A stretch of DNA of 64,000 bases, taken from an uncultured Veillonellaceae bacterium. Its GTDB lineage: Bacteria > Bacillota > Negativicutes > JARBTT01. The translations under genes and the position numbers were made by a program. The notes below the pieces were generated by a model. It saw only the letters and a program-made list of their open reading frames with translations. It was not told where the DNA came from and made no database searches. Location: positions 224,001 to 288,000 of the forward strand of contig CAWDTA010000003.1 of assembly GCA_963805085.1 (NCBI GenBank). The letters are read 5' to 3'. This document shows positions 49,554 to 64,000 of this stretch, piece after piece (the first letter of the stretch is position 1; every line of letters starts with the position of its first letter).

Positions 49554-49958
49554 ATGCGTAGTAAATCACAAGCAATATTAGATCAGAATTTAGCAGCGCA
49601 ATATGCTTTAAATGAAAATGAATATGACAGTCAAAAAATTTTGAATATTATCCGACGTTATTATGAGCTAAGAAGTTCAGCCGAAATTACTGCTGCACAA
49701 TATGGCTATGTTAGCAGCGGTAGCGATCCTGCTCATGGTAAAGATTATATTATGTGTGTTCTTGCCGATATTGATCAGGGGGTATCTATATTATCAGCAA
49801 GACAATTGGATGTTGTTAAACTTTTAAAAATGGGGTATCTGATTAAGGAAATTAGTAAAATTTTGGGTCTCAGACAGGTGACTGTAAACTTTCATATCCG
49901 TCAGGCGGGCTTACGGTTAGCCGCCTATCTTAATGACTTAAGGGAAGTGATAAGATGA
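49554..49958 (+). CDS. Phage-type transcriptional activator with sigma70 region-4/LuxR-like HTH
   Basis: LSARQLDVVKLLKMGYLIKEISKILGLRQVTVNFHI; AGGAGG RBS. Confidence 0.75.
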   Translation: MRSKSQAILDQNLAAQYALNENEYDSQKILNIIRRYYELRSSAEITAAQYGYVSSGSDPAHGKDYIMCVLADIDQGVSILSARQLDVVKLLKMGYLIKEISKILGLRQVTVNFHIRQAGLRLAAYLNDLREVIR

Positions 49959-50149
49959 GACAATATTATACATTGGAAATGCTAGAGGAGTTTTAGCGGT
50001 GTCAAGAACCAAGTATGTCTGAAGAAGTAGTAGAGAAAAAGGCAAAAAATTTAAAGAGGGTATTAAACACTCTGGAAATTAGCTGGTCGCGCAGTAATCA
50101 CCGGTTTTATGAGCACAACCAGCTTCAGGATTTTTCGCAAAAAATTTAA
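49955..50149 (+). pseudogene. Small phage-like ORF interrupted by an in-frame TAG
   Basis: ATG overlaps the upstream stop (ATGA). Reads MRQYYTLEMLEEF*RCQEPS...QDFSQKI*, with TAG at 49994. Confidence 0.45.
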
Positions 50150-50210
50150 TTGAGGAATCACTATCCTTAGTTGCTGTTTAATGTACGTATAAAAAGTAGG
50201 AGGTGAAAAT

Positions 50211-50378
50211 ATGATTTGTCCACTACTTTATATCAAACCCGATAATACCATGGTTTCAGTTGGTCAATGTATGGAGGAGGCCTGCGCCTGGTGGATTACC
50301 GATAGTAGTACAACAGGTACAAGTACAGGTAAATGTGCAATCTGCCAGCTGGGAGAGTCTGCTGCCAAGCAGGAATAA
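50211..50378 (+). CDS. Small Cys-rich hypothetical protein (55 aa)
   Basis: Strong AGGAGGTG RBS; MICPLL...QCMEEACAWW...KCAICQL; below the ORF-track size cutoff. Confidence 0.65.
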   Translation: MICPLLYIKPDNTMVSVGQCMEEACAWWITDSSTTGTSTGKCAICQLGESAAKQE

Positions 50379-50399
50379 TAGGAGAAAGGAGATGGCGAT

Positions 50400-50876
50400 A
50401 TGATTTCAACATTGAAATTAAGTGACATTACCAGTAAATGGCGGGATGCTTTAAAGGCAAGTACGGCGATTCAAAACTACTGCACGAGCAAGTACAATCA
50501 GATGCCAAAAATCTATGTTGGCATTAACGGTAAAAAATTGCCGGCAGATACCGACTGTCCATTGATCATCCTTTATCCCGGCGCGAAAACGGAAGGGCTC
50601 GAGCTAAAGGAATACACCTATAAACTTACAGTGGGCTGGATCATACTTCAAGACGCGACGACAACGACTAACAACGTAACAGAGTATTCGGGCGTTGCAG
50701 AATGTGATGAACTTGGCCAACTGATATATCAAGAACTGGCGGGACTGAGTACGGATAATCCGATCAGCGAAATGAAGTACAGTATTGAACCAGTGGCCTA
50801 TTATCCGCGTTTTCCCGGACGTATGGATATTACCATAAAATTAACGCCTGTCAATGGCTATAACATTGAATATTAA
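50400..50876 (+). CDS. Putative tail completion/terminator protein
   Basis: 158 aa directly before the tail tube gene; AGGAG RBS. Function is inferred from synteny. Confidence 0.55.
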   Translation: MISTLKLSDITSKWRDALKASTAIQNYCTSKYNQMPKIYVGINGKKLPADTDCPLIILYPGAKTEGLELKEYTYKLTVGWIILQDATTTTNNVTEYSGVAECDELGQLIYQELAGLSTDNPISEMKYSIEPVAYYPRFPGRMDITIKLTPVNGYNIEY

Positions 50877-50887
50877 GGAGGTACAAC

Positions 50888-51841
50888 ATGTCAAGAGCAA
50901 AAGGATATAATTCTCAATTAGCCATGGGGTATGAAACTACCTATGGCAAAACGCCAACGTCGATTAAGGGGTATAATATGCCGTTTAATCAGTCGAAAAT
51001 CGGAACTAAACAAAATTTAATCGAATCGAGCACTATTCGTGGACGCCGCGATAAAGAACAACCAGCGGTAGGGAGTATCGATGTATCCGGTAGTATCGTA
51101 GTGCCAATCGATCAGGTTGGCATTGGGTTTTGGTTAGCGGCTATGTTTGGCAGCCCGACGACTACTGGTACTGGTGATCCTTATACCCATGTTTTCAAAA
51201 TAAAAGATGGACAGCCCTCTTTAGTGCTGGAACAGCAATACCCAGATATTACAACCTATGAAATGTTTAACGGCTGCAAAGCAAATAAGTTTTCCTTTAC
51301 GTATGGTGGCGATACCGAGTTGACCGCCCAAATAGATTTAATGGGTGCTAAAAGAACGATTGGGGCAACGTCTTTTACCTCTGATTTGACCGATATCTCG
51401 CTATTAAGATACAGCAATTTTCAAGGGACGATCGAAGAAGGCGGTTCACAACTGGCTACTGTGACCGAAGCGAATCTAAACGTGGATTTTGGCCTAGATG
51501 GCAAGTCCTACACCATTGGTGGAGGCGGCTGTCGAACTGAACTCCCGGAAGGATACGTGCAAGCGTCCGGGAATATCAAGGCATTTTTCGAAGATACGGT
51601 GCTGCTGAATAAGGCGATAAATAACACCAAAACATCGCTGAATTTCAAGTTTGCAAATGGCATGCACAGCTTAGGATTTTTCATGGAAGAAGTAATGCTC
51701 CAGCAAACTTCACCCGGTATAGAAAATGAAAAAGGCATCATAATTAACCTACCGTTTAAGGCATATTACAACAGCGGCACAGGTGGCAGTATCCTTGTTG
51801 CGACACTGGTCAATGATCATGCTTCCTACGCAGTGTCCTAA
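50888..51841 (+). CDS. Phage tail tube (major tail) protein, non-contractile type
   Basis: GYETTYG N-terminal motif; G.IDVSGSI, YTHVF and GNIKAFFED segments typical of siphoviral tube proteins; AGGAGG RBS. Confidence 0.78.
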   Translation: MSRAKGYNSQLAMGYETTYGKTPTSIKGYNMPFNQSKIGTKQNLIESSTIRGRRDKEQPAVGSIDVSGSIVVPIDQVGIGFWLAAMFGSPTTTGTGDPYTHVFKIKDGQPSLVLEQQYPDITTYEMFNGCKANKFSFTYGGDTELTAQIDLMGAKRTIGATSFTSDLTDISLLRYSNFQGTIEEGGSQLATVTEANLNVDFGLDGKSYTIGGGGCRTELPEGYVQASGNIKAFFEDTVLLNKAINNTKTSLNFKFANGMHSLGFFMEEVMLQQTSPGIENEKGIIINLPFKAYYNSGTGGSILVATLVNDHASYAVS

Positions 51842-52193
51842 ACAAAAATAAAACCAAGTAACAGATTAGCGACAAGACTTTATAAAATGTAAACTATATC
51901 ATTCTTTACGCATTGTGCTTATGAAACAATGCGTAAAGAAACTTGGATTATTTTCAAAGCATAAAATTATATGGTACATATAACTTTAATTTTTCCGCGA
52001 GAAATAGAAAGAGATAACATAAAAAAGGCCTGTTGGCCTTTTTTTAATGGGATAGTATAAAGAAAATTATATAAATGTGCATTGGATAAATACCTGATAT
52101 TACTTAACCTTTGAATAAAAATTCAAAATGTTGTTGTAAAGAGCATCGTTAGTCCTGAAGGCAAGATAATATGCGGAGGGAGGGGATTGATGG

Positions 52194-53651
52194 GTGGATT
52201 GGAGTATAGATGGTTTAAAAGCTGCGATTATTAATGAGACTACTTATGTGAGTAATAAAATTGATAATGAGCTTACTTATGCGTCTAACCAATTAGATAA
52301 AGGGGAAGCTGCGGTTCTTAATGAGGTTACTTATGCAAAAAATGTAGTGGAGAAAGTCTTTTTTCCAGATGCTTCAAATGATCGTCAATCTGGACAAGAT
52401 GAGAGTGACGATACAGCCAGCGCTGCTTCAACGCAATCGGCAAATGGGGTGCCTGCTCCGAGTGGAGAAGAATGGTACTATCAAAAGGCGCAAGAAATAC
52501 AAAATGAGCATCCAGAAATGAGCCAAGAACAGATAACTAATAAAATGTCGGAGGAAATCTGGAACAACAATTATAATGCATTAATGGATGATATTGCCCA
52601 TAGTAAAACGCCGGAAGAACGGGATCAAAAGATTAAAGACTATCAGGCGGAATTAGATAATTATAAAGCATCTGGAATTAATGTTGATAATGATGTAGAA
52701 TATCTTAGAGATGTGCAAGGTATGCCAAAAGAAACTATTTCAAGTAAAATAATTTCTTTGATGAGTAATTATTCATTTAAAGTTGTAGAGTATCAATATA
52801 GTGTACCTCCTGACAGTTTTGCATTTATTGAAATCCCAAAAGACGGAATCAGTATAGAGAAATATACTGATTACCAAATACAAAAGAATGATGCTGAGAA
52901 TACAGTACATAATAGTTTGCAACAACAGGTTGAGGAGTTACTTGAAAAAGCAAAAAAATTACAGTTTATTAACGGTCGTCAATTAACGGACGCGGATCGT
53001 GAAGCGGGTTATCAACTGATGCCAACTCTTAATGGGCTAACCTACGTAAGAGCGAGATATGAGGATGGTAACTGGGTAATCCATCCTGATGACAGGCAAC
53101 TGGTCCAAGAAAGCAACCAAGATGTTGCTAAAGGTATGCTCTTAGGTGGAGTTTTACCAGGTGTAATTAAAGGAGTAAATGCAAGTGGAAAAAGTCTGCT
53201 TAAGGCTTTTACACAGGAGTCGAGTGAAAATTTTAGATTTAAAGAAGTTAATAGATTTACTGCGGAAGAAACAAATCAATGGTTTGTAGATAACATAAAA
53301 CCGGATTATAAACCACCATATAGACCAGGTACGGTCGTGAAAGAAATTGAGTTAAGCGAAAAAACAACATTTGTACGTGTATATGATAATAATCCGGGTG
53401 GATCTGGTAAGTATGGTAGCTGGGTAATGGATGCTAAAGAGATAGAGGGATTGACACCAAATCAGATTCAAGATAAATTTGCTCTGCCGAATATCCCTAA
53501 ATATGTTTGTGATGTTGAATTAGAGTCAGCTACTCGTATACGGGTAGGTGAAGTAAATCCACTTGATGGTTGGGGGGATGGTGGAGGTACACAATATGAT
53601 TTAATTGGACAAAGAATAGGTAAGTTTATAAATGAAAGATTATTAGAATAG
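52194..53651 (+). CDS. Polymorphic toxin 1: shared N-terminal domain plus putative TNT/ART-like C-terminal toxin
   Basis: Shares the APSGEE..NNNY..VDNDVEYL block with the other cassettes. C-terminus FVRVY...GSW...KFALP...GGGTQY. Followed by a small gene. Confidence 0.65.
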   Translation: MDWSIDGLKAAIINETTYVSNKIDNELTYASNQLDKGEAAVLNEVTYAKNVVEKVFFPDASNDRQSGQDESDDTASAASTQSANGVPAPSGEEWYYQKAQEIQNEHPEMSQEQITNKMSEEIWNNNYNALMDDIAHSKTPEERDQKIKDYQAELDNYKASGINVDNDVEYLRDVQGMPKETISSKIISLMSNYSFKVVEYQYSVPPDSFAFIEIPKDGISIEKYTDYQIQKNDAENTVHNSLQQQVEELLEKAKKLQFINGRQLTDADREAGYQLMPTLNGLTYVRARYEDGNWVIHPDDRQLVQESNQDVAKGMLLGGVLPGVIKGVNASGKSLLKAFTQESSENFRFKEVNRFTAEETNQWFVDNIKPDYKPPYRPGTVVKEIELSEKTTFVRVYDNNPGGSGKYGSWVMDAKEIEGLTPNQIQDKFALPNIPKYVCDVELESATRIRVGEVNPLDGWGDGGGTQYDLIGQRIGKFINERLLE

Positions 53652-53660
53652 GAGAAAACT

Positions 53661-53999
53661 ATGTATAGTATAAAAGATAATAATCTATTTATTAATTTAA
53701 AATGCGTAAAGTTTGATTTTGACATAAGAAATACGGTAGAATATTCGGGGCGTGTAGTTATTCTTTTGAGTATTCCATTTACAAGCAACGATATTAACAA
53801 TATTTATTGTGTAAGTGAGCTTGGAGAAATAATATGGCAGTCAGAAGATCTGAATTTGCTTTATCCTGACCTCAAAAATCTACCATATGAACAAATGGGA
53901 ATAAAAGATGGTATTTTGTATGCTTCTGATTTTTATGGTAGAAGTTATATGATTGATTTGGATACTGGAAGAATAAAAGGCTGTAACATTGTAAAATAA
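53661..53999 (+). CDS. Putative immunity protein for toxin 1
   Basis: 112 aa, 9 nt downstream with an AGGAG RBS; beta-rich NIYC...GEIIWQ...IDLDTG pattern. Confidence 0.6.
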   Translation: MYSIKDNNLFINLKCVKFDFDIRNTVEYSGRVVILLSIPFTSNDINNIYCVSELGEIIWQSEDLNLLYPDLKNLPYEQMGIKDGILYASDFYGRSYMIDLDTGRIKGCNIVK

Positions 54000-54226
54000 T
54001 CAGTGAGTTAACTTTAAAGGAAATGTTCACTTCAAAAATTTGAAAAAATTAGCCGCAAAATGGTGGAAGTAAATCATAATAATGAAAACGATTAGGATAG
54101 TAAAAATTAGAGACAAGAACATATTTATCAACAATAATGGCAGCATCTTACGCAGATGCTGCCATTTCCATTACGACTTATCTTTATAGAAGTTGCGGCA
54201 TCCGTCGCACATGACGCACATTAGAT

Positions 54227-54717
54227 CTAAATGTGAATTTCAAAAGTTATAAAAACAAAGGAGGAAAAAACAATGGCACAATTTCCAAATATTCAACAGC
54301 CAGTATACCCATTTACCACTAAAATCAAAGACCCTTCTCTGCAGTCCGAAATGGAAAACGGGATGGTTCTTTCCCGGGCTAAGTTTACTCGGGTACCGAA
54401 GATCTTTACTCTGAAATGGACGGCTTTACCTGCCGCTGATTATGCAAGCTTGCGTGATTTTTACTGCAATACGGTTTATGGCGGGAGTTTGGCGTTTGAC
54501 TGGTCTTATCCAACCGTTGCGGACGACTCGTATTCCGGTAAGCTGTTCTCCGTTCGCTTCAAAAGCGAAGACATTAGTTTCGATTTAGCAGCACCGGGCT
54601 ACTATTCCGGCAGTATAACAATTCAGGAGGTGTAATATGTTAAATTTATCAGTTGCCGGTATGCTGGAAAAAAGTCAGCTTTCCAGTGACGGTGTATGGC
54701 TTTTGCTAGTGGAAGTT
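54227..54717 (+). repeat. Direct repeat copy 1 (Dit gene plus 5' end of the gpL-like gene)
   Basis: Near-identical to 59058-59548 at an offset of 4831 nt. Confidence 0.9.
54273..54635 (+). CDS. Distal tail protein (lambda gpM/Dit-like), copy 1
   Basis: 120 aa; SEMENG..SRAKFTR, FDW.YP and VRF motifs; precedes a gpL-like start. Confidence 0.7.
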   Translation: MAQFPNIQQPVYPFTTKIKDPSLQSEMENGMVLSRAKFTRVPKIFTLKWTALPAADYASLRDFYCNTVYGGSLAFDWSYPTVADDSYSGKLFSVRFKSEDISFDLAAPGYYSGSITIQEV

Positions 54718-54768
54718 GCTATCCCGGATAAACATAATAAGAATAGATCGGTCATAACGACTGCATAA
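54637..54768 (+). pseudogene. Truncated 5' copy of the gpL/DUF1833-like gene
   Basis: First 27 codons are identical to 59468 (MLNLSVAGMLEKSQLSSDGVWLLLVEV), then the sequence diverges and stops. Confidence 0.8.
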
Positions 54769-54937
54769 GACAGAAATAATTCTTTTCGAAGTATAAACTT
54801 ATAATATATATAACTTTAAGTTTTCGCGCGAAGTACAAAACGATAAAAAAGGCCTGTTGGCCTTTTTTTATTTGCTGTCGTTTAAACAAAAAGTGTGATA
54901 TGAACTATTCTTATTTTGAGAAAGGATTTAGAGGTTA

Positions 54938-56221
54938 ATGAAGTATACATTACCTAATGGAATGACTGTAGATGAAAATGGGATACAAGTACTCCCTGAT
55001 AATAATCAGCAATCGTCAGAAACTACAGAAACAGTGTCGCAAGTAACTACTGCTAGTGGAATTGACATTGGTGAAGAAGCCAAGAAGGCAATGGCTAGAG
55101 ACAATGCAAACGATCAGGGGAGCGAGAAAGTAGAGGTCGGCTCTGCCTTCGCGCAATCGGGAAACGATGTTCATGCTCCAAGTGGAGAAGAATACTACTA
55201 TCGAAGGGCGCAAGAAATACAAAATGAACATCCCGATTGGACTACTGATCAGATAACGAATAAAATGTCGGAGGAAATTTGGAACAACAATTATCATGCA
55301 TTAATGGAGGATATTGCCCACAGTAAAACGCCCGCAGAGCGAGACGCAAAAATCGAACAGTATAAATCGCAGCTTCTAGAGTATTATGTTTCTGGAATTG
55401 ATGTTGATAATGATGTAGAATATCTTAGAGAAGTACAAGGTGTAGAACCTCAATACAGATTATCACCAGACAATCCCGCGTTTGTTGATGCAATATTAAG
55501 TTTTCAAGATAGGGCAAATGGTTATGATTTAGAGGATAATGAAAATCATATAAAATGGAGAATTAAACCTTCTGGTGCAGTGCATCCTGATGATTGGGAC
55601 AATTATCTGATACAGCAAGAATATAAACAGTCTATACAAACAGTTTCTGATAACAACGTGATAAATTCAGAAAATGTGCATAAATTATTAGATGTAGCAG
55701 GTCTTTTTCCTGCTGCTGGTGCTGTTCCAGATCTAGGAAACTCGGCTTTATATTTGTTTGAGGGTAATTATGAAGAATCGAGAAATAGTGCAATTGCAGC
55801 AGTACCATTTGCTGGAGATTATTTTGCCGTAGCAGTAAAAGGTAGTAAGCTTTTCAAAGGTGTAGATGAAACGCGTAATGCTGTTGTCGAAGCTGAGCGC
55901 ATAGTGTCTCAAGACGTTGGTAAAGCCCCGAATGCCAACAATTATAGAAAATTATTTTTGAAGGAAAACCCAGAGATGCCTAAAACATATCAAGTGCATC
56001 ATACTTTGCCGCAAAAGTACGAAGAAATTCTAAATTTCAAGGAAATTAACATTCATGAGGCGAAGTATCTAGAAGGAATTGATCCAGATATTCATAAACA
56101 GATAACAAAGGAATGGCAGAAGTGGGACAAATCTTTAGGAAGAACTCCCACCTCAGAGGAGGTATTTGACTTTACACAGAAAATAGATAGTAAATATGGT
56201 CAGTTTTGGTACAAAAAATGA
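54938..56221 (+). CDS. Polymorphic toxin 2: shared domain, pre-toxin TG-like segment, putative His-metal (HNH/AHH-like) nuclease
   Basis: LDVAGLFPAAGAVPDLGNSALYLFEG...AAVPFAG (PT-TG-like); C-terminus QVHHTLPQ...IH...GI...IHKQIT..W. Confidence 0.68.
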   Translation: MKYTLPNGMTVDENGIQVLPDNNQQSSETTETVSQVTTASGIDIGEEAKKAMARDNANDQGSEKVEVGSAFAQSGNDVHAPSGEEYYYRRAQEIQNEHPDWTTDQITNKMSEEIWNNNYHALMEDIAHSKTPAERDAKIEQYKSQLLEYYVSGIDVDNDVEYLREVQGVEPQYRLSPDNPAFVDAILSFQDRANGYDLEDNENHIKWRIKPSGAVHPDDWDNYLIQQEYKQSIQTVSDNNVINSENVHKLLDVAGLFPAAGAVPDLGNSALYLFEGNYEESRNSAIAAVPFAGDYFAVAVKGSKLFKGVDETRNAVVEAERIVSQDVGKAPNANNYRKLFLKENPEMPKTYQVHHTLPQKYEEILNFKEINIHEAKYLEGIDPDIHKQITKEWQKWDKSLGRTPTSEEVFDFTQKIDSKYGQFWYKK

Positions 56222-56228
56222 AAGGGGA

Positions 56229-56588
56229 ATGCAAATGGAAAAACAAAAATTACTTTTTGAAAATCTAAAACGTATAAAAGATTATTGGGTTACCAACGGG
56301 ATACGAGATATTGAGCCTGATGCTGATTTGAGATTTTCTGATGTTAAGGAGGCCATTCAAGAATTGCAAAAAATAATATCTACTCAAAGTCAAAAAGATG
56401 CCTATAAGAGAGTCTTAAATGATATTATTGAAGGGGTTTTTCACTCTACTTTAGTAATGATTGATGGTGGAGATGCTTTAGCTGATAATATGAAAATTGA
56501 TTTAGTGGATTTTGATACTGGTGAGTCGTTAAAGGGCAAAACAGCCTTGCATGAAGAGTTTTTCGGCTATTTGCTGGATAATGAATGA
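56229..56588 (+). CDS. Putative immunity protein for toxin 2
   Basis: Small acidic gene right after toxin 2 with an AGGGG RBS; HSTLVMIDGG and LHEEFF motifs. Confidence 0.6.
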   Translation: MQMEKQKLLFENLKRIKDYWVTNGIRDIEPDADLRFSDVKEAIQELQKIISTQSQKDAYKRVLNDIIEGVFHSTLVMIDGGDALADNMKIDLVDFDTGESLKGKTALHEEFFGYLLDNE

Positions 56589-56647
56589 AATTAAGATAAT
56601 TACTAACAACGTGGCAGCATCTCATGAGATGCTGCTATTTCCATTAC

Positions 56648-57586
56648 TGGACTACTGATCAGATAACGAATAAAATGTCGGAGAAAATCTGGAACAATAA
56701 TTATAATGCATTAATGGAGGAGATTGCCCACAGTAAAACGCCCGCAGAGCGAGACGAAAAAATCGAACAGTATAAATCGCAGCTTCTAGAGTATTATGTT
56801 TCTGGAATTGATGTTGATAATGATGTAGAATATCTTAGAGAAGTACAAGGCGTAGAACCTCAATACAGATTATCACCGGATAATCCCGCGTTTATTGATG
56901 CAATATTAAGTTTTCAAGATAGGGCGAATGATTATGATTTAAAGTATAATGAAAATTATGTAAAATGGAGAATTAAACCTTCAGGGGCAGTGCATCCTGA
57001 TGATTGGGACAACTATCTGATACAGCAAGAATATAAACAGTCTATTTCAGATAATATGGTAGCGAAAGCTAGTATGGTTGTTGGTGGCCCTATAGCAGGA
57101 AAGGCATCCCAAGAGGTTAGCGTAGTTACAAAAGAAATAGCTGAGACTGAAAGTACTTTTGTGCAGGAATCAAGTAATGCTGTTGCTCGTGATACATATG
57201 ATGGAGTAAAGGAAGCTTCAGAATATTTGAAGTCTCAGGGAGTTTCTAGGCAATTCCGCAAACAAATATTAGAATCATTTGATGCAGGGACTATTAAATT
57301 GCAAGTTGCAGATGAAAATACTTATGGATTAAGATTTTATGATGGAGTAAATGCTGAAGCTAGGGGGAGATATCTGTTTGAAAGTTTTAACAATTTAACT
57401 AATCGTCAAAATTTAGCACTTCCACCAGAATGGAATGAAATGAGTGGGATTAAACAGTGGCGAATTGAACCCGATACAACAATGATAACAGGAGAAGCTG
57501 CTTCACAGTTTCAATTTGGATTTCGATATGTCGGAGGTGAAAAACAATGGTATATAACGGATCTAAAAAATCTTCTAGAACCATAA
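56648..57586 (+). CDS. Orphan (5'-truncated) polymorphic toxin 3 with putative TNT/ART-like C-terminus
   Basis: 56648-57045 is near-identical to 55238-55635 of toxin 2 and has no proper start or RBS. The C-terminus differs: GLRFY...RGRYL...LALPPEWN...YVGGEKQWY. Confidence 0.62.
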   Translation, partial: WTTDQITNKMSEKIWNNNYNALMEEIAHSKTPAERDEKIEQYKSQLLEYYVSGIDVDNDVEYLREVQGVEPQYRLSPDNPAFIDAILSFQDRANDYDLKYNENYVKWRIKPSGAVHPDDWDNYLIQQEYKQSISDNMVAKASMVVGGPIAGKASQEVSVVTKEIAETESTFVQESSNAVARDTYDGVKEASEYLKSQGVSRQFRKQILESFDAGTIKLQVADENTYGLRFYDGVNAEARGRYLFESFNNLTNRQNLALPPEWNEMSGIKQWRIEPDTTMITGEAASQFQFGFRYVGGEKQWYITDLKNLLEP

Positions 57587-57852
57587 TTTTAAAAAATCAA
57601 GTATTAATACTTATGGATAAGGCTATAGAGGATATTCAAAGTGAGATAAATAAACATAAATGTGGGATAATGGCTAATGGAACGATTGCCCAACTAGAAC
57701 ATATATGTAAAGAAGTTGAAAAAATGAAATCTACACTAAATTCCAAAATATTTCTCCCATCATATCCAGTGATTATTGTAGATTCATGGGATTTCAAATC
57801 TACTTTAGGGAATGATTTATTAAACTTATTGGAAAAATATAAAGAACTGTGA
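57547..57852 (+). CDS. Putative immunity protein for toxin 3 (start uncertain, possibly ATG 57613)
   Basis: Small helical ORF overlapping or abutting the toxin 3 stop; IIVDSW...LG..L motif. Confidence 0.55.
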   Translation: MVYNGSKKSSRTIILKNQVLILMDKAIEDIQSEINKHKCGIMANGTIAQLEHICKEVEKMKSTLNSKIFLPSYPVIIVDSWDFKSTLGNDLLNLLEKYKEL

Positions 57853-57959
57853 GAAAAAATAAAAAATGATTATATCAAAAACTAATTGAGAAAAAGTGAC
57901 GCGTGTGCTTTTGTCTCAACTAAAATGTAATTAAAGAGCAAAATGGCTAGCAGAGATGC

Positions 57960-58908
57960 CAATGTCATTAAGTTAAGGGTAGAGGATAAATCTCTAAAAG
58001 AATTGAGTACAAAAAATGCGTACCCGGTTCTTTTTTTTGTAGAAAAAGGTTGACAAACAGACAAAAATATGTGGCGCAGCCCCTTGAATGAATACATTTT
58101 GGGAGGTTTCGCTTATGAATTTCTCTGAAAGCGTGAAACAGGTATTGTTGGGAAAAATACAGGAGATGGCAACTTGTCCTAGATCGTTTGTACGCAATCC
58201 CGACAGTGATTTTACAAGAAAGCGAAAGCTTGATCTTGAAACAACTATTCGGTGTCTGATTGCCATGGAAAGCGGTAGCCTGAAGAAAGAACTGTTGGAG
58301 CTTTTCCATTACAATCTTGACACCGCGACGGCATCGGCTTTTAATCAGCAACGGGAAAAGATACTGCCGGAAGCGTTGGAATTTCTTTTTCGTGAGTTCA
58401 GCAAAGCTTTTGCACAATATCAAACATATCGTGGATATCGATTGCTAGCCTGTGACGGCACTGCCTTGAACATAGCTCGAAATTCAACCGATCAGGAAAC
58501 TTATTTTCAGTCAATTCCCGGAGATAAGGGGTTTAATCAACTCCATCTAAATTCTCTATACGATTTATGCAGCAGACGCTACGTAGATGCCATAATCCAG
58601 CCGGAAAGAAAAAAGAATGAGTGCCGTGCCATGACGGACATGATCGACCGGTGCGTTTCCGAACACAAGACAATATTTATTGCCGATCGCGGTTATGAAG
58701 CTTACAACACCTTTGCCCACGCAGAGCAAAGAGATATGTATTATCTTATACGCGTAAGAGAATCCGGGCATAGCATGGTAGCTAGCTTTGGGTTGCCACT
58801 AACCAATTCATTCGATACACGAGTACAATTGACACTGACCCATAAACAGACAACTCAGGCAAGAGCCTGTCCCAGTTATAAATTCCTTCCCTTAACTTAA
58901 TGACATTG
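57960..58908 (+). mobile_element. Internally deleted IS4-family insertion sequence
   Basis: Perfect 20-bp terminal inverted repeats CAATGTCATTAAGTTAAGGG; 10-bp target duplication GCAGAGATGC at 57950-57959 and 58909-58918. Confidence 0.9.
58115..58900 (+). pseudogene. Truncated IS4-family DDE transposase
   Basis: DFTRKRKL, SAFNQQREK, LLACDGT and IADRGY motifs. The ORF runs into the right inverted repeat before the C-terminal catalytic Glu region. Confidence 0.85.
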
Positions 58909-59103
58909 GCAGAGATGCTAGTCATTTTTGTTGAGCTGAACAAGCAAATCCGAAAGCACAAGCGACAGCAAAACAATAGCTACCAAAGAAAATAATATGT
59001 GACCTTCGGGATGTTCCATGGATTGTTAGACAAGTTAACCATGACGTATAACAATCCCTAAATGTAAATTTCGAAAACCATAAAAACAAAGGAGGAAAAA
59101 ACA

Positions 59104-59466
59104 ATGGCACAATTTCCAGATATCCAACAGCCAGTATACCCATTTACCACTAAAATCAAAGACCCTTCTCTGCAGTCCGAAATGGAAAACGGGATGGTTC
59201 TTTCCCGGGCTAAGTTTACTCGGGTACCGAAGACTTTTACTCTGAAATGGACGGCCCTGCCTGCCGCTGATTACGCGAGTTTGCGTGATTTTTACTGTAA
59301 TACGGTTTATGGTGGGAGTTTGGCATTTGACTGGTATTATCCAACTGTTGCGGACGACTCGTATTCTGGTAAGCTGTTCTCCGTTCGCTTCAAAAGCGAA
59401 GACATTAGTTTCGATTTAGCAGCACCGGGCTACTATTCCGGCAGTATAACAATTCAGGAGGTGTAA
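59104..59466 (+). CDS. Distal tail protein (gpM/Dit-like), copy 2
   Basis: Three amino-acid differences from copy 1; heads the intact tip operon. Confidence 0.72.
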   Translation: MAQFPDIQQPVYPFTTKIKDPSLQSEMENGMVLSRAKFTRVPKTFTLKWTALPAADYASLRDFYCNTVYGGSLAFDWYYPTVADDSYSGKLFSVRFKSEDISFDLAAPGYYSGSITIQEV

Positions 59467-59467
59467 T

Positions 59468-60085
59468 ATGTTAAATTTATCAGTTGCCGGTATGCTGGAA
59501 AAAAGTCAGCTTTCCAGTGACGGTGTATGGCTTTTGCTAGTGGAAGTTACCATTCCAGAATCTGCTGAGCCTTTGCGACTTGTGCGCAATAATGAGGACA
59601 TCAGTTGGAATGGCTATACTTGGACAGCGTTTAATTTTAAACTCGGTGACATTACAGAGGATAGCAAAGGCAGGCCGCAGTCCGTACCGCTGCAGGTTTC
59701 AAACCTAACGCAAACTGTCCAGGCCTATGTAGAGGAAAATAGCGGTCTGACGGGTACGACGGTAGCACTGCGGGTGGTCCATTCCGAGCATTTGGACAAT
59801 GCTTCACCTGAATTGGAAGAAATCTTTACTGTGCAGTCTACGACCTGTGATAGTAAATGGATTACTTTTTACCTTGGCTGTGAAATATCCATTCAGCGGA
59901 GATTTCCTGCTCGGCGGGTACTGAAGAATTTCTGTGCTTGGCGCGATCAATACAAGGGAATCGAATGCGGGTATAACGGATCGCTCGCGGAGTGTGACGG
60001 CACGCTAGAGTCCTGCCGTGATCGAGGCAATGCGGCTCGCTACGGCGGCGAACCTAGCATTCCGGAAGGAGGTTTGTATGCCTAG
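59468..60085 (+). CDS. Tail tip protein, lambda gpL/DUF1833-like
   Basis: LRLVRNNEDISWNG motif; C-terminal four-Cys cluster (FCAW, ECGY, ECDGTLESC) as in gpL. Confidence 0.78.
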   Translation: MLNLSVAGMLEKSQLSSDGVWLLLVEVTIPESAEPLRLVRNNEDISWNGYTWTAFNFKLGDITEDSKGRPQSVPLQVSNLTQTVQAYVEENSGLTGTTVALRVVHSEHLDNASPELEEIFTVQSTTCDSKWITFYLGCEISIQRRFPARRVLKNFCAWRDQYKGIECGYNGSLAECDGTLESCRDRGNAARYGGEPSIPEGGLYA

Positions 60086-60482
60086 TATGAAGAGAACATT
60101 TACGGATATCATCGGCTTACCATTTGTTGATGGTGGGCGAGACCCAACTACTGGTTTTGATTGCTGGGGACTCTCTACTGAAGTTTTCCGACGCTACGGG
60201 CTTAAGCTGCCCGACTACAAAATATCTTGTGAAGAGGCTAGTTCGATTCACAGTGAAGTGCATAAGCAAAAACAATTTTGGCGCAGGTGTGAGGGAGAAA
60301 TCCCCGTTCCTGCGCTTGTTGTTATCCGCTTTACCGTGTACTGTGACCATACTGGGGTGTACATTGGTAACGGTCGGTTTATCCATACCCGCAAAGGAAT
60401 TGGTGTCAACATCGACCGCATTGACAGCCCCGCTTGGGCGAAACGTATTGAAGGATTCTATGTACCGGAGGTGATGGCATGA
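60078..60482 (+). CDS. NlpC/P60 (C40) tail assembly peptidase, gpK-like
   Basis: GFDCWGL, HTGVYIG and FIHT catalytic motifs; ATG at 60078 after AAGGAGG. Confidence 0.85.
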   Translation: MPSMKRTFTDIIGLPFVDGGRDPTTGFDCWGLSTEVFRRYGLKLPDYKISCEEASSIHSEVHKQKQFWRRCEGEIPVPALVVIRFTVYCDHTGVYIGNGRFIHTRKGIGVNIDRIDSPAWAKRIEGFYVPEVMA

Positions 60483-63400
60483 TTACAATAACGATTATAA
60501 AAAACCCGTTTGATCATAGTGAAAAAGAAGTCTATACGTTAGAATACATCCCTGAAAAAACGGCATTTGAGTATGTTCAGCCTTATATTATGGGATTGGA
60601 GGACTATATTGTCAGTATCAACGGCGACGTTGCGGAGGATGCAAAAGTACAGGTGGTAAATTGTGATGACTGGCTGGCCGTTTGTCCAATTGTCGGTAAA
60701 AGTGGCCGGGACTGGTTTAGAACTATTGGAACGATGGCAATGGGATACGCTGTTAGCGGGTTGGGAAATGCGAAGGCTTGGAGAGCCTTTTGGGGAGAAA
60801 GTAAATTCTGGGCTAATATGGCCGCTGGGGCTGTTGGCTTAGTCGGCGGAACATTAATCAACCATTGGTTCCCTGCGGCCAAAGCAGATCAGGTCGAAAC
60901 CAAATCATCCTACAACTGGAGCAACGCGCAATCACAAACCGGTCAGGGCAATGCTCTGGCCGTTACGTATGGTACCATGCGGACAGCGGGGCAGATACTT
61001 GCACAGCATGTGTCAAGTAATGACGAAGATCAGTATCTGAATATCCTGCTGTGCGGCGGCGAAGGGCCGATTGACAGTATTAACGATATTCGGATTAATG
61101 ACAATCCCATTTCTTACTATAAAGGCGTAACTGTTGAAACCAGACTAGGTGCTAATGATCAAGCAGCGATTGCCAATTTTAACGATACCTATGATGATCA
61201 GTCGTTAGCCTACGAACTCAATACCGACGGCAGTTGGGCCACGCAGCAAACTGAGGGGAATGCGGTAGAGGGACTGGAAATCACGTTGCAGTTTCCCGGC
61301 GGTTTATACTATGTCAATGATGACAGCGGCCTAGGAAATGCCTCTGTTACTGTAATCATGCAGTACCGTAAAGTCGGTGATACGGATTGGAATAGTGTTA
61401 CTACCGCCACCATTACGGCAGCGAAAAACACCGCTTTTTTCCGAACCTATCGCCTAGATAATTTTACTGCCAATCAATATGAAGTAAGAGCCCAGTGTAC
61501 ATCTAAAAGTGGTACAAGTACTCGGTATTCCACCCACGTGTATTGGACGCAGCTATCGAGCATCATGTATGACGATTTTGCCCGTCCCGGCAAGGTACTT
61601 GTCGGCATCAAGGCGCTCGCAACCAACCAGTTGAGTGGAGGCACGCCGAGTATAACCTGGCTGCAGACTCGCGATAAGGTTTGGGTCTGGAATTCTGAAA
61701 CCAGCAAATATGAACAAAAATCTGCTGCGAATCCGGCTTGGGCGGCCTATGATATGATTCACCGTTGCCGACAGATTAAAAATATCCACACCGGTGGCTA
61801 CGAGTTTGTTGTCCAAGGCGCTCCGGCATCGCGAGCAGTGTATCAGGATTTCGTCCGATGGGCGACGTTTTGCGATGATCGAAGTTTAACCTTCAATTAT
61901 ATCTTCGATACGGCGAATGATCTCTGGACATTGCTGCAGAAACCAGAGGGCGTTGGGCGGGGCAAAGTTATCATGCGGGGTACAAAGTTTGGTTGTGTCT
62001 GCGATGCTCCCGGTGATCCAGTGCAACTATTTACTGTTGGCAATATCCTTACCGATAAATTCAAGGAAAGCTTCGTCAGCCTGAAGGATCGGGCCAACGC
62101 GATAGAAGTTTCCTTTCCTAATAAAAACAAAGCCTATGAAAAGGAAGTTATTACGGTTTATGCTGACGATTATGACGAGTCGACAGAACCCAATATCACC
62201 CAGATTACCTTGGATGGCGCTACCACTGTCGAACAGGCTTACCGGGAAGCCAAATATCGGTTAAGGCTAAATCAATACCTAGTGCGGACGGTGGAACACA
62301 GCGCAGATATTGATGCAATCGCCTGCCAAATTAACGATGTTGTCCTATTGGCGCATGATGTGCCACAGTGGGGCTTTTCCGGACGCCTGCTTGCTGCAAC
62401 GGCGACGACACTGCAGCTTGATCGCGAGGTAACGCTCGAACCGGACAAATCCTACGCTGTGGCGCTTCAGATTACCAATTTGGCGGCAACGGCGAATCAA
62501 GACGTCCAAACTATTGTAACTGTCGGTGTGCAGGGGGTAACAGAGGAAACTACCACCGATACGATCACCGTTATTGATTCGTTGTCTACAGTTCCACTAA
62601 AGTGGGATCTCTATAGCTTTGGTGAAACGAACAAAGTTGTTAAGCCGTTTAGAGTACTCAATATCAGTCGTGATCAGGACCTAAGGCGCAAAATTTCTTG
62701 CCTTGAATATATTGAGGAAATCTACACGGAGGCAACAGATATACCTGAAATAAATTATAGCGAGCTGGATACGATGCCTGAGGCTAGTAGTCTAAGTGTC
62801 GCTGAAGAAACCTACCGACAAAAAGATGGCACTATGGTTTCTGATCTTAATGTTTCTTGGCGCATCCCGCGTACGAATGAGATCAGTGGTTATAAAGTAC
62901 TGTATAGTAGCGACAATGGCACGACCTGGACGGAGTGGTGCAGAGGTATAAAAGTGCTAAGTACTTCAATTGTCGGCGTAAAAACGGCGACTACGTATTT
63001 GGTAAAGGTTTGCACCATCAATATTCTTAACAACGTATCGAATGGAATTCAGGCTTCAATATATGTTACCGGGAAAGATCGTCCGCCATCCGATGTTGCC
63101 AGTTTGGCGGCCTCGTTTGATACTACAGATTTATCAAAAGTCATTCTGTCATGGTCAGCGGTTGATGATATTGATCTAGCTGGATACCGAATTCGAGAAG
63201 GTACGAAGATTATCGAAAATCTGGCTCAGATTACGACCTATACCTATGCTGCAACTGAAAGCCGTGCGCACACCTTCGCGGTTACGGCTGTCGATAATTC
63301 TGGCAATGAGTCTGCTGCGGCAGCTACGGTAACTGTAAAGGTAACCGTTGAGCCAGCCGATGTTCAAGATTTTGCTATTAAGCAGCGAGCGTCCGACCGT

Positions 63401-64000
63401 TGCTATGTGGACATGTCCTGGACGGCAATTGCCGATACCAGTCTATCGCACTACGAAATTCGTATGGCAACGAATGATGACTGGAGTTCAGCCACCGTTA
63501 TTGCCAGTCAACTAAAAGCCACTAGTTATAGTTATCAGCTGATGTCAGAAGGCTATATCTATTTCTTTATCAAGGCAGTAAATTCCGGTGGTTATTACAG
63601 CACAGCGGCGGCTGAAGATGCGCTGCAAGTAGTTTTGAAGCCGGATGCTGTTGCCAATCTCTCAGCTACTCAAAGCTCCAAAGATAAAAGTATCGTCATT
63701 TTAACCTGGGATGCGGTAAGTGGGGATGACATTGCCGGATATAAAGTTACGGTAGACGACGGCACATATATTACTAAAGAGCTTACCCATAGCTATGAGG
63801 CAAGTGAGAATAAGACGTATACTTTCTCGGTGCAGTCTATAACTACAGCGGGATATTGTTCTAAGGCCACAAGCTGCAGTATTGCTGTGACAATCTCGGC
63901 GATAGACGTTACCGGATTTTCCGTCAGACAATCCTCGACTGACCGGACGAAGATCATTTTAACGTGGGATACTCCGATAGAGCTTGATGTATCGTACTAT
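60479..64000 (+). CDS. Tail tip/host-specificity protein TipJ (gpI-gpJ-like) with multiple FN3 repeats, 3'-partial
   Basis: Open frame from ATG 60479 to the window end. Contains YGT, LCGGEGPID and NPAWAAYD, plus repeated P.DV....LSW......YRI FN3-like units. Absent from the ORF track because there is no stop in the window. Confidence 0.85.
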   Translation, partial: MITITIIKNPFDHSEKEVYTLEYIPEKTAFEYVQPYIMGLEDYIVSINGDVAEDAKVQVVNCDDWLAVCPIVGKSGRDWFRTIGTMAMGYAVSGLGNAKAWRAFWGESKFWANMAAGAVGLVGGTLINHWFPAAKADQVETKSSYNWSNAQSQTGQGNALAVTYGTMRTAGQILAQHVSSNDEDQYLNILLCGGEGPIDSINDIRINDNPISYYKGVTVETRLGANDQAAIANFNDTYDDQSLAYELNTDGSWATQQTEGNAVEGLEITLQFPGGLYYVNDDSGLGNASVTVIMQYRKVGDTDWNSVTTATITAAKNTAFFRTYRLDNFTANQYEVRAQCTSKSGTSTRYSTHVYWTQLSSIMYDDFARPGKVLVGIKALATNQLSGGTPSITWLQTRDKVWVWNSETSKYEQKSAANPAWAAYDMIHRCRQIKNIHTGGYEFVVQGAPASRAVYQDFVRWATFCDDRSLTFNYIFDTANDLWTLLQKPEGVGRGKVIMRGTKFGCVCDAPGDPVQLFTVGNILTDKFKESFVSLKDRANAIEVSFPNKNKAYEKEVITVYADDYDESTEPNITQITLDGATTVEQAYREAKYRLRLNQYLVRTVEHSADIDAIACQINDVVLLAHDVPQWGFSGRLLAATATTLQLDREVTLEPDKSYAVALQITNLAATANQDVQTIVTVGVQGVTEETTTDTITVIDSLSTVPLKWDLYSFGETNKVVKPFRVLNISRDQDLRRKISCLEYIEEIYTEATDIPEINYSELDTMPEASSLSVAEETYRQKDGTMVSDLNVSWRIPRTNEISGYKVLYSSDNGTTWTEWCRGIKVLSTSIVGVKTATTYLVKVCTINILNNVSNGIQASIYVTGKDRPPSDVASLAASFDTTDLSKVILSWSAVDDIDLAGYRIREGTKIIENLAQITTYTYAATESRAHTFAVTAVDNSGNESAAAATVTVKVTVEPADVQDFAIKQRASDRCYVDMSWTAIADTSLSHYEIRMATNDDWSSATVIASQLKATSYSYQLMSEGYIYFFIKAVNSGGYYSTAAAEDALQVVLKPDAVANLSATQSSKDKSIVILTWDAVSGDDIAGYKVTVDDGTYITKELTHSYEASENKTYTFSVQSITTAGYCSKATSCSIAVTISAIDVTGFSVRQSSTDRTKIILTWDTPIELDVSYY

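Follow-up and report, generated by a model that had tools for sequence, protein, structure and literature searches.

Gene content of the locus

The stretch of DNA analyzed here (the window) comprises 64,000 nt of an uncultured Veillonellaceae bacterium (assembly GCA_963805085.1, contig CAWDTA010000003.1, positions 224,001-288,000; G000:C3:224001-288000), the genome of which, G000, is 83% complete. From position 49554 to the end of the window, and for approximately 10 kb past it, lies a headless lambda-type tail cluster of approximately 24 kb in total, in which toxin-immunity cassettes occupy the slot between the tail tube gene and the gpM-like gene, where chaperones and a tape-measure protein (TMP) would belong. 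The cluster belongs to a headless lambda-type tail module that is conserved and domesticated in Negativicutes of the Sporomusa group and is related to the F-type tailocins. The toxins of this module may be carried by the tail itself, and this possibility is weighed below against its alternatives.

The scan covered all open reading frames (ORFs) between the flanking core genes; the E-values quoted for window genes are those of Pfam unless another source is given. The upstream flank consists of ABC transporter and PdxS/T genes and is common only to G001, a genome of the same genus, among the relatives, and the downstream flank is formed by HAD and DeoR core genes. Between these flanks, the scan detected no gene for a capsid, a portal, a terminase, a sheath, chaperones, or a TMP, and no sheath or baseplate family was matched by any ORF of the element in Pfam or PHROG. 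None of the ORFs is at once long, helical, and unassigned, every one of them being accounted for. A previous interpretation of this DNA made from its letters (the sequence-only reading) had described a headless non-contractile tail that starts right after core genes, lacks all of the gene types just listed, and holds three toxin/immunity pairs in the tape-measure slot. These claims were borne out by the ORF and Pfam scans, the pairs being located at 52194-53999, 54938-56588, and 56624-57852. The gene order that it gave was also correct overall, but a second copy of the gpM-like gene with a gpL stub, a small insertion sequence (IS), and the 5′ truncation of toxin 3 had been missed.

All main genes from 49554 to the end of the window are on the + strand (Table 1). 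The gene at 50400-50876, previously labeled as tail completion, encodes a gpU-like terminator instead: in Foldseek, the AlphaFold model of its product p158 matches lambda gpU (3fzb; E 1e-5, TM 0.55-0.68), T5 p142, and the monocin cap (9j1j). The gpL-like protein additionally matches an F2-pyocin chain (E 1.8e-9) by PDB sequence profile comparison, and its cysteines C156, C167, C176, and C183 are invariant. The gene that had been called Dit is present at 59104-59466 but occurs twice, and it is designated gpM-like here. Its copy B matches a PHROG virion structural protein (phrog_384, E 9e-10), NCBIfam yielded nothing of use for it, and a comparison of the gpM-like profile with PDB sequences gave no match to solved structures, so that the identity Dit/gpM is assigned from position and size only. 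The gpJ-like ORF, which runs out of the window, has a full length of 1647 amino acids (aa) and is 80% identical to a 1657-aa homolog in G006. It is followed by a gene for a fiber-like 438-aa protein (PHROG tail fiber, E 1e-30) and then by a 92-aa ORF. Within the element, an Amidase_2 gene (E 4.6e-5, below the Pfam cut-off) is overlapped by a gene whose 71-aa product has a membrane helix at its C-terminus; this small protein is holin-like, and the two genes form a putative lysis cassette. The G+C content changes in steps between 44000 and 64000, with values of 0.37-0.41 in the flanking core genes, 0.33-0.39 in the toxin cassettes, and 0.42-0.50 in the tail genes, and that of both the tail module and the cassettes departs from the host average.

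Table 1. Genes and other features of the tail cluster within the window (window coordinates; ".", no strand)
Feature	Position	Strand	Basis or remark
LuxR/GerE-type helix-turn-helix (HTH) regulator, first gene	49554..49958	+	Pfam GerE, E 1.4e-6; homolog heads headless clusters in relatives
sm55, 55-aa Cys-rich small protein	50211..50378	+	Five Cys; kept only in headless loci
p158, gpU-like tail terminator, 158 aa	50400..50876	+	AlphaFold pLDDT (model confidence) 89; Foldseek; PHROG phrog_17431
Major tail tube protein	50888..51841	+	Pfam Phage_tube_2, E 1.8e-57; PDB 8xan_B major tail protein, E 2e-23
Bidirectional terminator-like hairpin, 5′ of toxin 1	52021..52044	.	Conserved leader
Toxin 1, 485 aa	52194..53651	+	Module A at aa 89-176 (profile E 7.8e-46); weak Ntox10-like C-terminus
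Putative immunity protein 1, 112 aa	53661..53999	+	Position directly 3′ of toxin 1; no family found
gpM-like protein, copy A, 120 aa	54273..54635	+	Between pair 1 and pair 2; 97-98% aa identity to copy B
gpL-like gene, 5′ fragment, ~90 nt	54637..54729	+	Directly after gpM copy A; alignment
Second copy of terminator-like hairpin, 5′ of toxin 2	54845..54868	.	Conserved leader
Toxin 2, 427 aa	54938..56221	+	Module A at aa 81-168, module B at aa 176-232, variable C-terminus
Putative immunity protein 2, 130 aa	56196..56588	+	Start overlaps end of toxin 2; no family found
Orphan toxin 3, 5′-truncated, 320 aa	56624..57586	+	Starts within module A, then module B, different C-terminus
Putative immunity protein 3, 101 aa	57547..57852	+	Position; no family found
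Small IS, ~990 bp, 43-bp inverted ends	57940..58928	+	DDE_Tnp_1 ORF 58088-58900 (270 aa), Pfam E 2e-11
gpM-like protein, copy B, 120 aa	59104..59466	+	Lambda M position, just 5′ of L; synteny in all relatives
gpL-like tail tip protein	59468..60085	+	Pfam Phage_tail_L, E 3e-18; lambda gpL 8iyk_L, E 3.4e-14
NlpC/P60 protein at lambda K position	60018..60482	+	Pfam NLPC_P60, E 5e-15
gpJ-like central tip protein (I-J fusion), FN3 repeats	60479..64000, on to G000:C3:289422	+	FNIII-A_GpJ, E 1.5e-25; Phage-tail_3; fn3

Toxin-immunity cassettes and their recombination

The toxins of the family share a layout that consists of a variable, mostly disordered N-terminus, a helical 88-aa module A, a 57-aa module B (consensus APxNPAFIDAxLS..NGYxL..WRV..G.PHPDD), and a variable C-terminus. 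For toxin 2, the AlphaFold model is confident in modules A and B and poor elsewhere. Direct evidence of toxicity is weak for the toxins of the window (Ntox10, E 0.003, below the cut-off). Among 21 family members, Pfam recognized Ntox10 in two C-termini (best E 2.5e-22) and Colicin-DNase, EndoU, WHH, and DUF6883 in one each; one database homolog carries WHH and Colicin-DNase. The genes 3′ of the toxins in relatives include Imm42 (E 3e-33) and Tdi1_C (E 4e-9). Furthermore, toxin 2 and its homolog in G001 are 83% identical over residues 1-343 and divergent thereafter, and a homolog of immunity protein 2 (73% identical) follows a toxin-2-like C-terminus in metagenome locus L133, which contains a cassette array. 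Toxin 3 is without its first ~98 codons, and a part of it (repeat D1, 56648-56947) is 95% identical to 55238-55537 of toxin 2. From this domain organization, the genes are predicted to be true polymorphic toxin-immunity pairs, with toxin 3 as a classical orphan cassette.

In the N-terminal parts of the toxins, no LXG, Rhs/PAAR, contact-dependent inhibition (CDI), MuF, or other trafficking family was recognized in Pfam, PHROG, or NCBIfam, and no receptor-binding or translocation family was matched in the toxins. A fold search with the toxin 2 model gave its best Z score, 6.5, on helical module A, which is within noise for helical bundles, and a comparison with BFVD gave no match at E ≤ 0.001, module B and the C-terminus being barely probed by these searches. 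Complex prediction of the tube, gpM-like, and gpL-like proteins with residues 1-240 of toxin 2 gave a score of 0.01 vs. a mark of 0.32, a result that weighs neither way. Two candidate features were rejected. A PT-TG pre-toxin domain in the Gly/Ala-rich stretch after module B was a weak lead of Atlas (0.88), and Pfam gave nothing even at E ≤ 5. A glycine zipper was considered as a general mechanism, and GxxxG runs are confined to toxins of the same type as toxin 1 (GMLLGGVLPG at residue 314).

The cassettes are swapped by recombination via the flanking tail genes, which accounts for the second gpM copy with its gpL stub, the truncated orphan toxin, and the tandem tube-toxin-M units of a relative described below. 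The gpL profile matches the stub over profile positions 1-39 (G000:C3:278637-278753). Together with the stub, the gpM copies are ~95% identical in DNA, and copies A and B differ with a synonymous distance (dS) of 0.18 at a ratio of nonsynonymous to synonymous substitution (dN/dS) of 0.06. The extra copy therefore came from a diverged allele and not from a fresh duplication in place.

Recurrence of the cluster in related genomes

The search set consisted of 401 genomes of the same class, and the tube was found in 48 of these, all Negativicutes (Massilibacillus, Pelosinus, Sporomusa, Lucifera). A tube at least 68% identical to that of the window is present in 16 of the 401 genomes, which belong to nine families, and long loci were fetched for 15 of the 16. 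The recurring gene order is HTH regulator, sm55, terminator, tube, toxin-family gene, small ORF, M, L, K, J, and fiber. In 14 of the 16 genomes, a toxin-family gene stands directly 3′ of the tube gene or of a tube fragment; three of these (G008, G192, G208) rest on module B profile matches. The synteny of tube, toxin, and Dit without head genes, which the sequence-only reading had proposed to look for in other genomes, thus recurs in these 14. The chaperones and TMPs of related prophages had no blastp match (E < 1e-3) in the ORFs of the 15 headless toxin-bearing loci.

A similar picture was obtained outside the genome set. In IMG/VR, 11 loci have a tube at least 70% identical to that of the window; none of the 11 has TMP or chaperone matches, and the toxin gene comes right after the tube gene in nine. 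A metagenome scan with module A yielded three loci, two of which show the order HTH, sm55, terminator, tube, toxin, the third being a short contig of toxin/immunity cassettes. Cultured carriers are Sporomusa silvacetica DSM 10669, Sporomusa rhizae DSM 16652, and Lucifera butyrica. S. silvacetica DSM 10669 (L039/L040, NZ_CP155573.1, ~277-305 kb) contains three tandem terminator-tube-toxin-immunity-M units; identity between their tube copies is 95.6-96.2%, and agreement between their toxins does not extend past the first 135-180 residues.

Two of the 16 genomes are exceptions. In an uncultured Pelosinus (G090), the slot between tube and M is occupied by a 643-aa protein that ends in a Phage_lysozyme domain (E 1.5e-15; L045:9433-12628), flanked by ORFs of 233 and 177 aa, and the family toxin lies between L and K. 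The cluster of G184 is rearranged, and rearranged or partial units also exist in G208 and G160. In addition, a mosaic locus was found in G051 (L061, G051:C261), in which the tube gene abuts M with nothing between them and a module B toxin follows K, where J would be expected, the contig ending there. The tube of this locus is only 50% identical to that of the window, and its M, L, and K are 76-80% identical.

The tape-measure divide and its origin

Relatives with a tube at most 55% identical to that of the window encode chaperones of the G/T type and a TMP of 411-1158 aa, and a toxin-family match is absent from them. Those that are ordinary prophages (L048, L049, L051) encode portal and capsid proteins as well as the chaperones, and their TMPs measure 896-1114 aa. 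Chaperone or TMP matches are present in ten of 12 further distant genome loci; of the other two, one ends at the tube, and one has an unassigned 777-aa ORF. Among 29 distant IMG/VR loci, such matches are present in 21, three loci end at or just after the tube, and in the remaining five the slot consists of two small ORFs and one unassigned ORF of 682-970 aa. No toxin-family match stands beside these TMP-bearing or distant tubes (0/12 genome loci, 0/29 IMG/VR loci, and 0/4 other TMP-bearing loci). Relatives with an intact TMP gene and the toxins as unrelated morons, the pattern named beforehand as contrary to the sequence-only reading, were the opposite of what was found, the TMP-bearing relatives being without such toxins.

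Others among these distant relatives (L050 in G068, L114, and L115) are canonical headless clusters with a LuxR-type HTH regulator, tube, G/T chaperones, a short TMP of 411-419 aa, M-L-K-J, and fiber; in L050, the cluster adjoins genes for proteins of 352, 224, and 776 aa. This type looks like an undescribed F-type tailocin of Negativicutes.

In a maximum-likelihood tree of the tube, the 17 TMP-less sequences, which come from 15 genomes, group together in a single clade (support 100/100) whose neighbor is a TMP-bearing prophage. The tube of mosaic G051 falls outside this clade. TMP loss and toxin gain therefore look like one ancestral event, and the relatives show its persistence and not repeated invention. 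Comparison of G000 with G001, G006, G053, and G031 gave dN/dS values of 0.04-0.13 for the terminator, tube, M, L, and J at dS of 0.23-2.6, and of ~0.2 for the regulator. The analysis of dN/dS proposed in the sequence-only reading thus revealed strong purifying selection on the tail genes, and J ORFs of ~1650 aa are intact in several genera.

Proposed mechanism and alternative explanations

The ancestor of the module lost the chaperone and TMP genes between the tube and gpM genes, and the slot now holds toxin-immunity cassettes. For this arrangement, a toxin carried as tail cargo is the best single explanation, unproven, and is assigned a probability of approximately 45%. In the proposed mechanism, the LuxR-type regulator would turn the operon on, the toxin would take the physical place of the TMP within the tube or the tip, and the holin-like protein and amidase would free the products by lysis. 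The fiber and J tip could then bind a receptor, upon which the toxin would be expelled into the neighboring cell, where its nuclease or RNase domain would kill if a matching cytoplasmic immunity protein is absent. The wider proposal, a non-contractile lambda-type particle that injects polymorphic toxins and in which a swappable toxin replaces the TMP, as a flexible-tail counterpart of extracellular contractile injection systems (eCIS) and the type VI secretion system (T6SS), is put forward more tentatively. Functional replacement is favored because the lumen protein and its chaperones are gone, a toxin is in the slot, the two states are mutually exclusive, and the other tail genes are under selection. 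By sequence, the toxin does not appear to be derived from the TMP. The toxin-delivery device with the toxin as tube cargo suggested by the sequence-only reading is thus partly supported: the recurrent TMP-less tail with toxins was confirmed, and the toxin is a putative cargo, with neither homology to TMPs nor a domain shared by all tube-adjacent toxins.

Several precedents make functional replacement plausible. Assembly of lambda tails begins on a complex of which the TMP and chaperones are part, whereas the tube protein of SPP1 self-polymerizes. The TMP is metastable within the tail lumen and is the first component to be discharged. For contractile Afp, the toxin is reported to reside in the tube lumen, where it takes the place of the TMP once the particle is mature (PMC8718954). 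For the F-pyocin, the proposed action is ejection of the TMP and internal proteins (bioRxiv 10.64898/2026.02.24.707460). In a T6SS DNase, an N-terminal glycine-zipper segment homologous to TMP C-termini is reported to be needed for cell entry (PMC10240207).

The strongest rival, a possible but less probable explanation, is that the toxins are soluble bacteriocins, similar to colicins or S-pyocins, which are housed with the tail only for its shared regulator and lysis genes and enter target cells alone. Each would then comprise a variable part for the receptor, the conserved modules in the middle, and a cytotoxic end, with an immunity gene alongside, and the tail would serve some other role. 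Several observations point in this direction and weigh against the toxin as tail cargo. The Colicin-DNase, WHH, and EndoU domains of the family and a cytotoxic C-terminus with a tightly linked immunity gene would suit such bacteriocins, as would the lysozyme-domain protein in the slot of G090. Module B is not confined to the tail clusters: it has matches at E < 1e-10 in 17 genomes, and the tube is present in 14 of these. Among the module B genes whose flanks are visible, no fewer than five are solitary genes in core-gene surroundings (L053, L055, L056, L057, L058), and G010, G034, and G132 have module B genes and no TMP-less cluster, only ordinary TMP-bearing prophages being present in G034 and G132. 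No domain is common to all tube-adjacent toxins, which have module A only, both modules, or module B only, and this argues against a single loading signal. Toxin lengths range from 283 to 674 aa, and some toxins have only ~55 aa before module B, so that they cannot act as a length ruler. The position of the toxin in the operon is not fixed, being between L and K in G090 and after K in G051. No sequence or profile similarity was detected between toxins and TMPs (blastp; hhalign probability 0.2%), and a search for TMP-toxin fusions among longer proteins, which is weak evidence, found none. In G000, the cassettes are bounded by hairpins, these and the IS part the tube from M-L-K-J, and the G+C content of the cassettes is lower than that of the tail genes, as expected of imported cassettes. 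Since the TMP-less state looks like one ancestral event, the relatives are also not independent evidence for cargo. A precedent exists in R-tailocin clusters of Pseudomonas, in which cargo genes for LlpA and colicin M-like bacteriocins have been described (PMC4684702).

On the other hand, soluble bacteriocins leave unexplained why every member of the clade is without chaperones and TMP while its other tail genes are under purifying selection, and why the toxins occur in the TMP-less clade only and never beside the TMP-bearing relatives. Module A is nearly confined to tail clusters, 12 of its 14 strong matches in the 401 genomes being on tail-cluster contigs and the other two at contig edges, and no known receptor-binding or translocation domain was found.

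An ordinary F-type tailocin, the ruler of which is an unrecognized gene, the N-terminal part of the toxin, or a protein of another prophage, with the toxins as morons, is improbable. TMPs are very divergent and easily missed by sequence, G000 is only 83% complete, and canonical headless clusters with a short TMP (L050, L114, L115) exist in the same class. However, all ORFs between the flanking core genes are accounted for, and no chaperone or TMP match was obtained in the locus ORFs of 15 genomes. As for a TMP acting in trans, the related TMP profile found nothing in G000, G006, or the complete genomes G160 and G040, G216 giving only a marginal match (E 0.003), and PF10145 had no match in G000, although controls matched. 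The unrelatedness of the toxin and TMP profiles also speaks against this explanation.

A decaying prophage tail that serves as a cassette hotspot, with relic tail genes and the toxin-immunity pairs as its only part of consequence, was the alternative offered by the sequence-only reading and is suggested by the rearranged window copy (duplicated M with L stub, truncated toxin, IS) and the rearranged or partial units of G184, G208, and G160, but it is highly improbable and, for the family, is ruled out by the low dN/dS (0.04-0.13, at dS of 0.2-2.6) and the long intact J ORFs, besides which the layout is kept in 16 genomes of nine families and 11 IMG/VR contigs (with the toxin next to the tube in 14/16 and 9/11) within one clade, the regulator and lysis genes are retained, and in the window truncation is limited to toxin 3 and the L stub, the tail ORFs being intact there and in relatives.

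Comparison with known systems

Polymorphic toxins are known to be delivered by CDI, Rhs/T6SS, LXG/type VII secretion (T7SS), MuF, and eCIS. The present element resembles an F-type tailocin crossed with a polymorphic toxin system, and there is a real chance that it represents a new delivery route. As in the F-type tailocins (the F-pyocins of P. aeruginosa and the Listeria monocin), headless siphovirus-type tail genes are located on the chromosome together with their own regulator and lysis genes, and they include those for a tube, a terminator used as a cap, and a lambda-type tip, with a match of the gpL-like protein to the F2-pyocin chain and of the terminator to the monocin cap. F-type tailocins keep their chaperones and TMP and are proposed to kill by ejecting the TMP, whereas the clade described here is without both; the canonical TMP-bearing version is found in the same class (L050, L114, L115).

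T6SS has a tube protein of the same broad structural kind, and small effectors ride in the lumen of its Hcp tube. In contrast to the element, which has no T6SS genes, it is cell-bound, sheath-driven, and TMP-free by design. The polymorphic toxin systems (MuF, CDI, Rhs, LXG) and the present family have in common that the N-terminal part is conserved, that the C-terminal toxin can be swapped, and that an immunity gene lies next to it, with truncated orphans downstream. Unlike those systems, this family has no known trafficking domain and is linked to the tube gene of a headless cluster and not to a capsid protein or a secretion system; MuF toxins are reported to be encoded by temperate phages (PMC5576092).

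The eCIS of the Afp/PVC type are toxin carriers derived from phage tails, with the Afp toxin in the lumen (PMC8718954). Afp/PVC particles are contractile and have a sheath, a baseplate, an AAA ATPase, and a TMP gene, whereas the present cluster is lambda-like without sheath or baseplate, and its toxins are antibacterial polymorphic toxins with immunity genes. In the R-tailocin clusters of Pseudomonas (Ghequire et al. 2015), genes for soluble bacteriocins occupy several insertion sites, and LlpA was detected even in purified R-tailocin particle preparations (PMC4684702). Those tailocins keep all structural genes including the TMP, and the cargo genes are near cluster ends or regulatory genes and do not form a polymorphic family; here, by contrast, the putative cargo replaces an essential structural gene.

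The clade has shed the TMP and chaperones, kept its other tail genes under strong selection, and invariably carries toxin-immunity cassettes, so either tail assembly works without a ruler, or the toxin took the place of the ruler. To our knowledge, every non-contractile tail examined to date is assembled around a TMP. No description of a TMP-less tail cluster with toxins, nor of a tailocin in Negativicutes, was found in a literature search in which subscription journals and supplements were incompletely covered. If the toxin is carried by the tail, this would constitute a new delivery route for polymorphic toxins, would mean that a lambda-type tail can assemble without a TMP or G/GT chaperones, and would provide a naturally modular, reprogrammable protein-delivery particle. 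The element, which is kept by a group of anaerobes from soil, may be a new kind of weapon between bacteria. Should the toxins prove to be mere co-regulated passengers, the cluster is still an undescribed competition island of Negativicutes. The existence of cultured carriers makes the element directly testable.

Additional features of the element

The IS of the window lies between the last immunity gene and gpM-like copy B, and a second copy, 90% identical, is present at G000:C4:330763-331715. Together with the two terminator-like hairpins between the tube and tip genes, it may weaken the G000 copy of the module, possibly at the level of expression. A search for sequencing runs yielded soil-metagenome DNA runs of small share only and none of RNA.

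The small Cys-rich protein sm55 had no family match in Pfam, PHROG, or NCBIfam. It may resemble Com of phage Mu and, with its five cysteines, could be a small zinc-binding regulator.

Beyond the window, between the 92-aa ORF and the lysis genes, the element contains two DUF6734 paralogs (L002:5251-7016), both with a D-T-D motif, and G006 has them too. NCBIfam and PHROG searches gave nothing useful for them. They could be glycosyltransferase-like and might modify the receptor of the producer itself.

The lysis genes are followed by genes for a 283-aa protein and two multi-pass membrane proteins (84 and 188 aa). At the far end of the element (L002:9163-11779), a 538-aa protein combines a lipase-like GDSLGG motif with a subsequent toxin module B, and this protein and the preceding membrane ORFs may represent a second kind of effector with membrane immunity.

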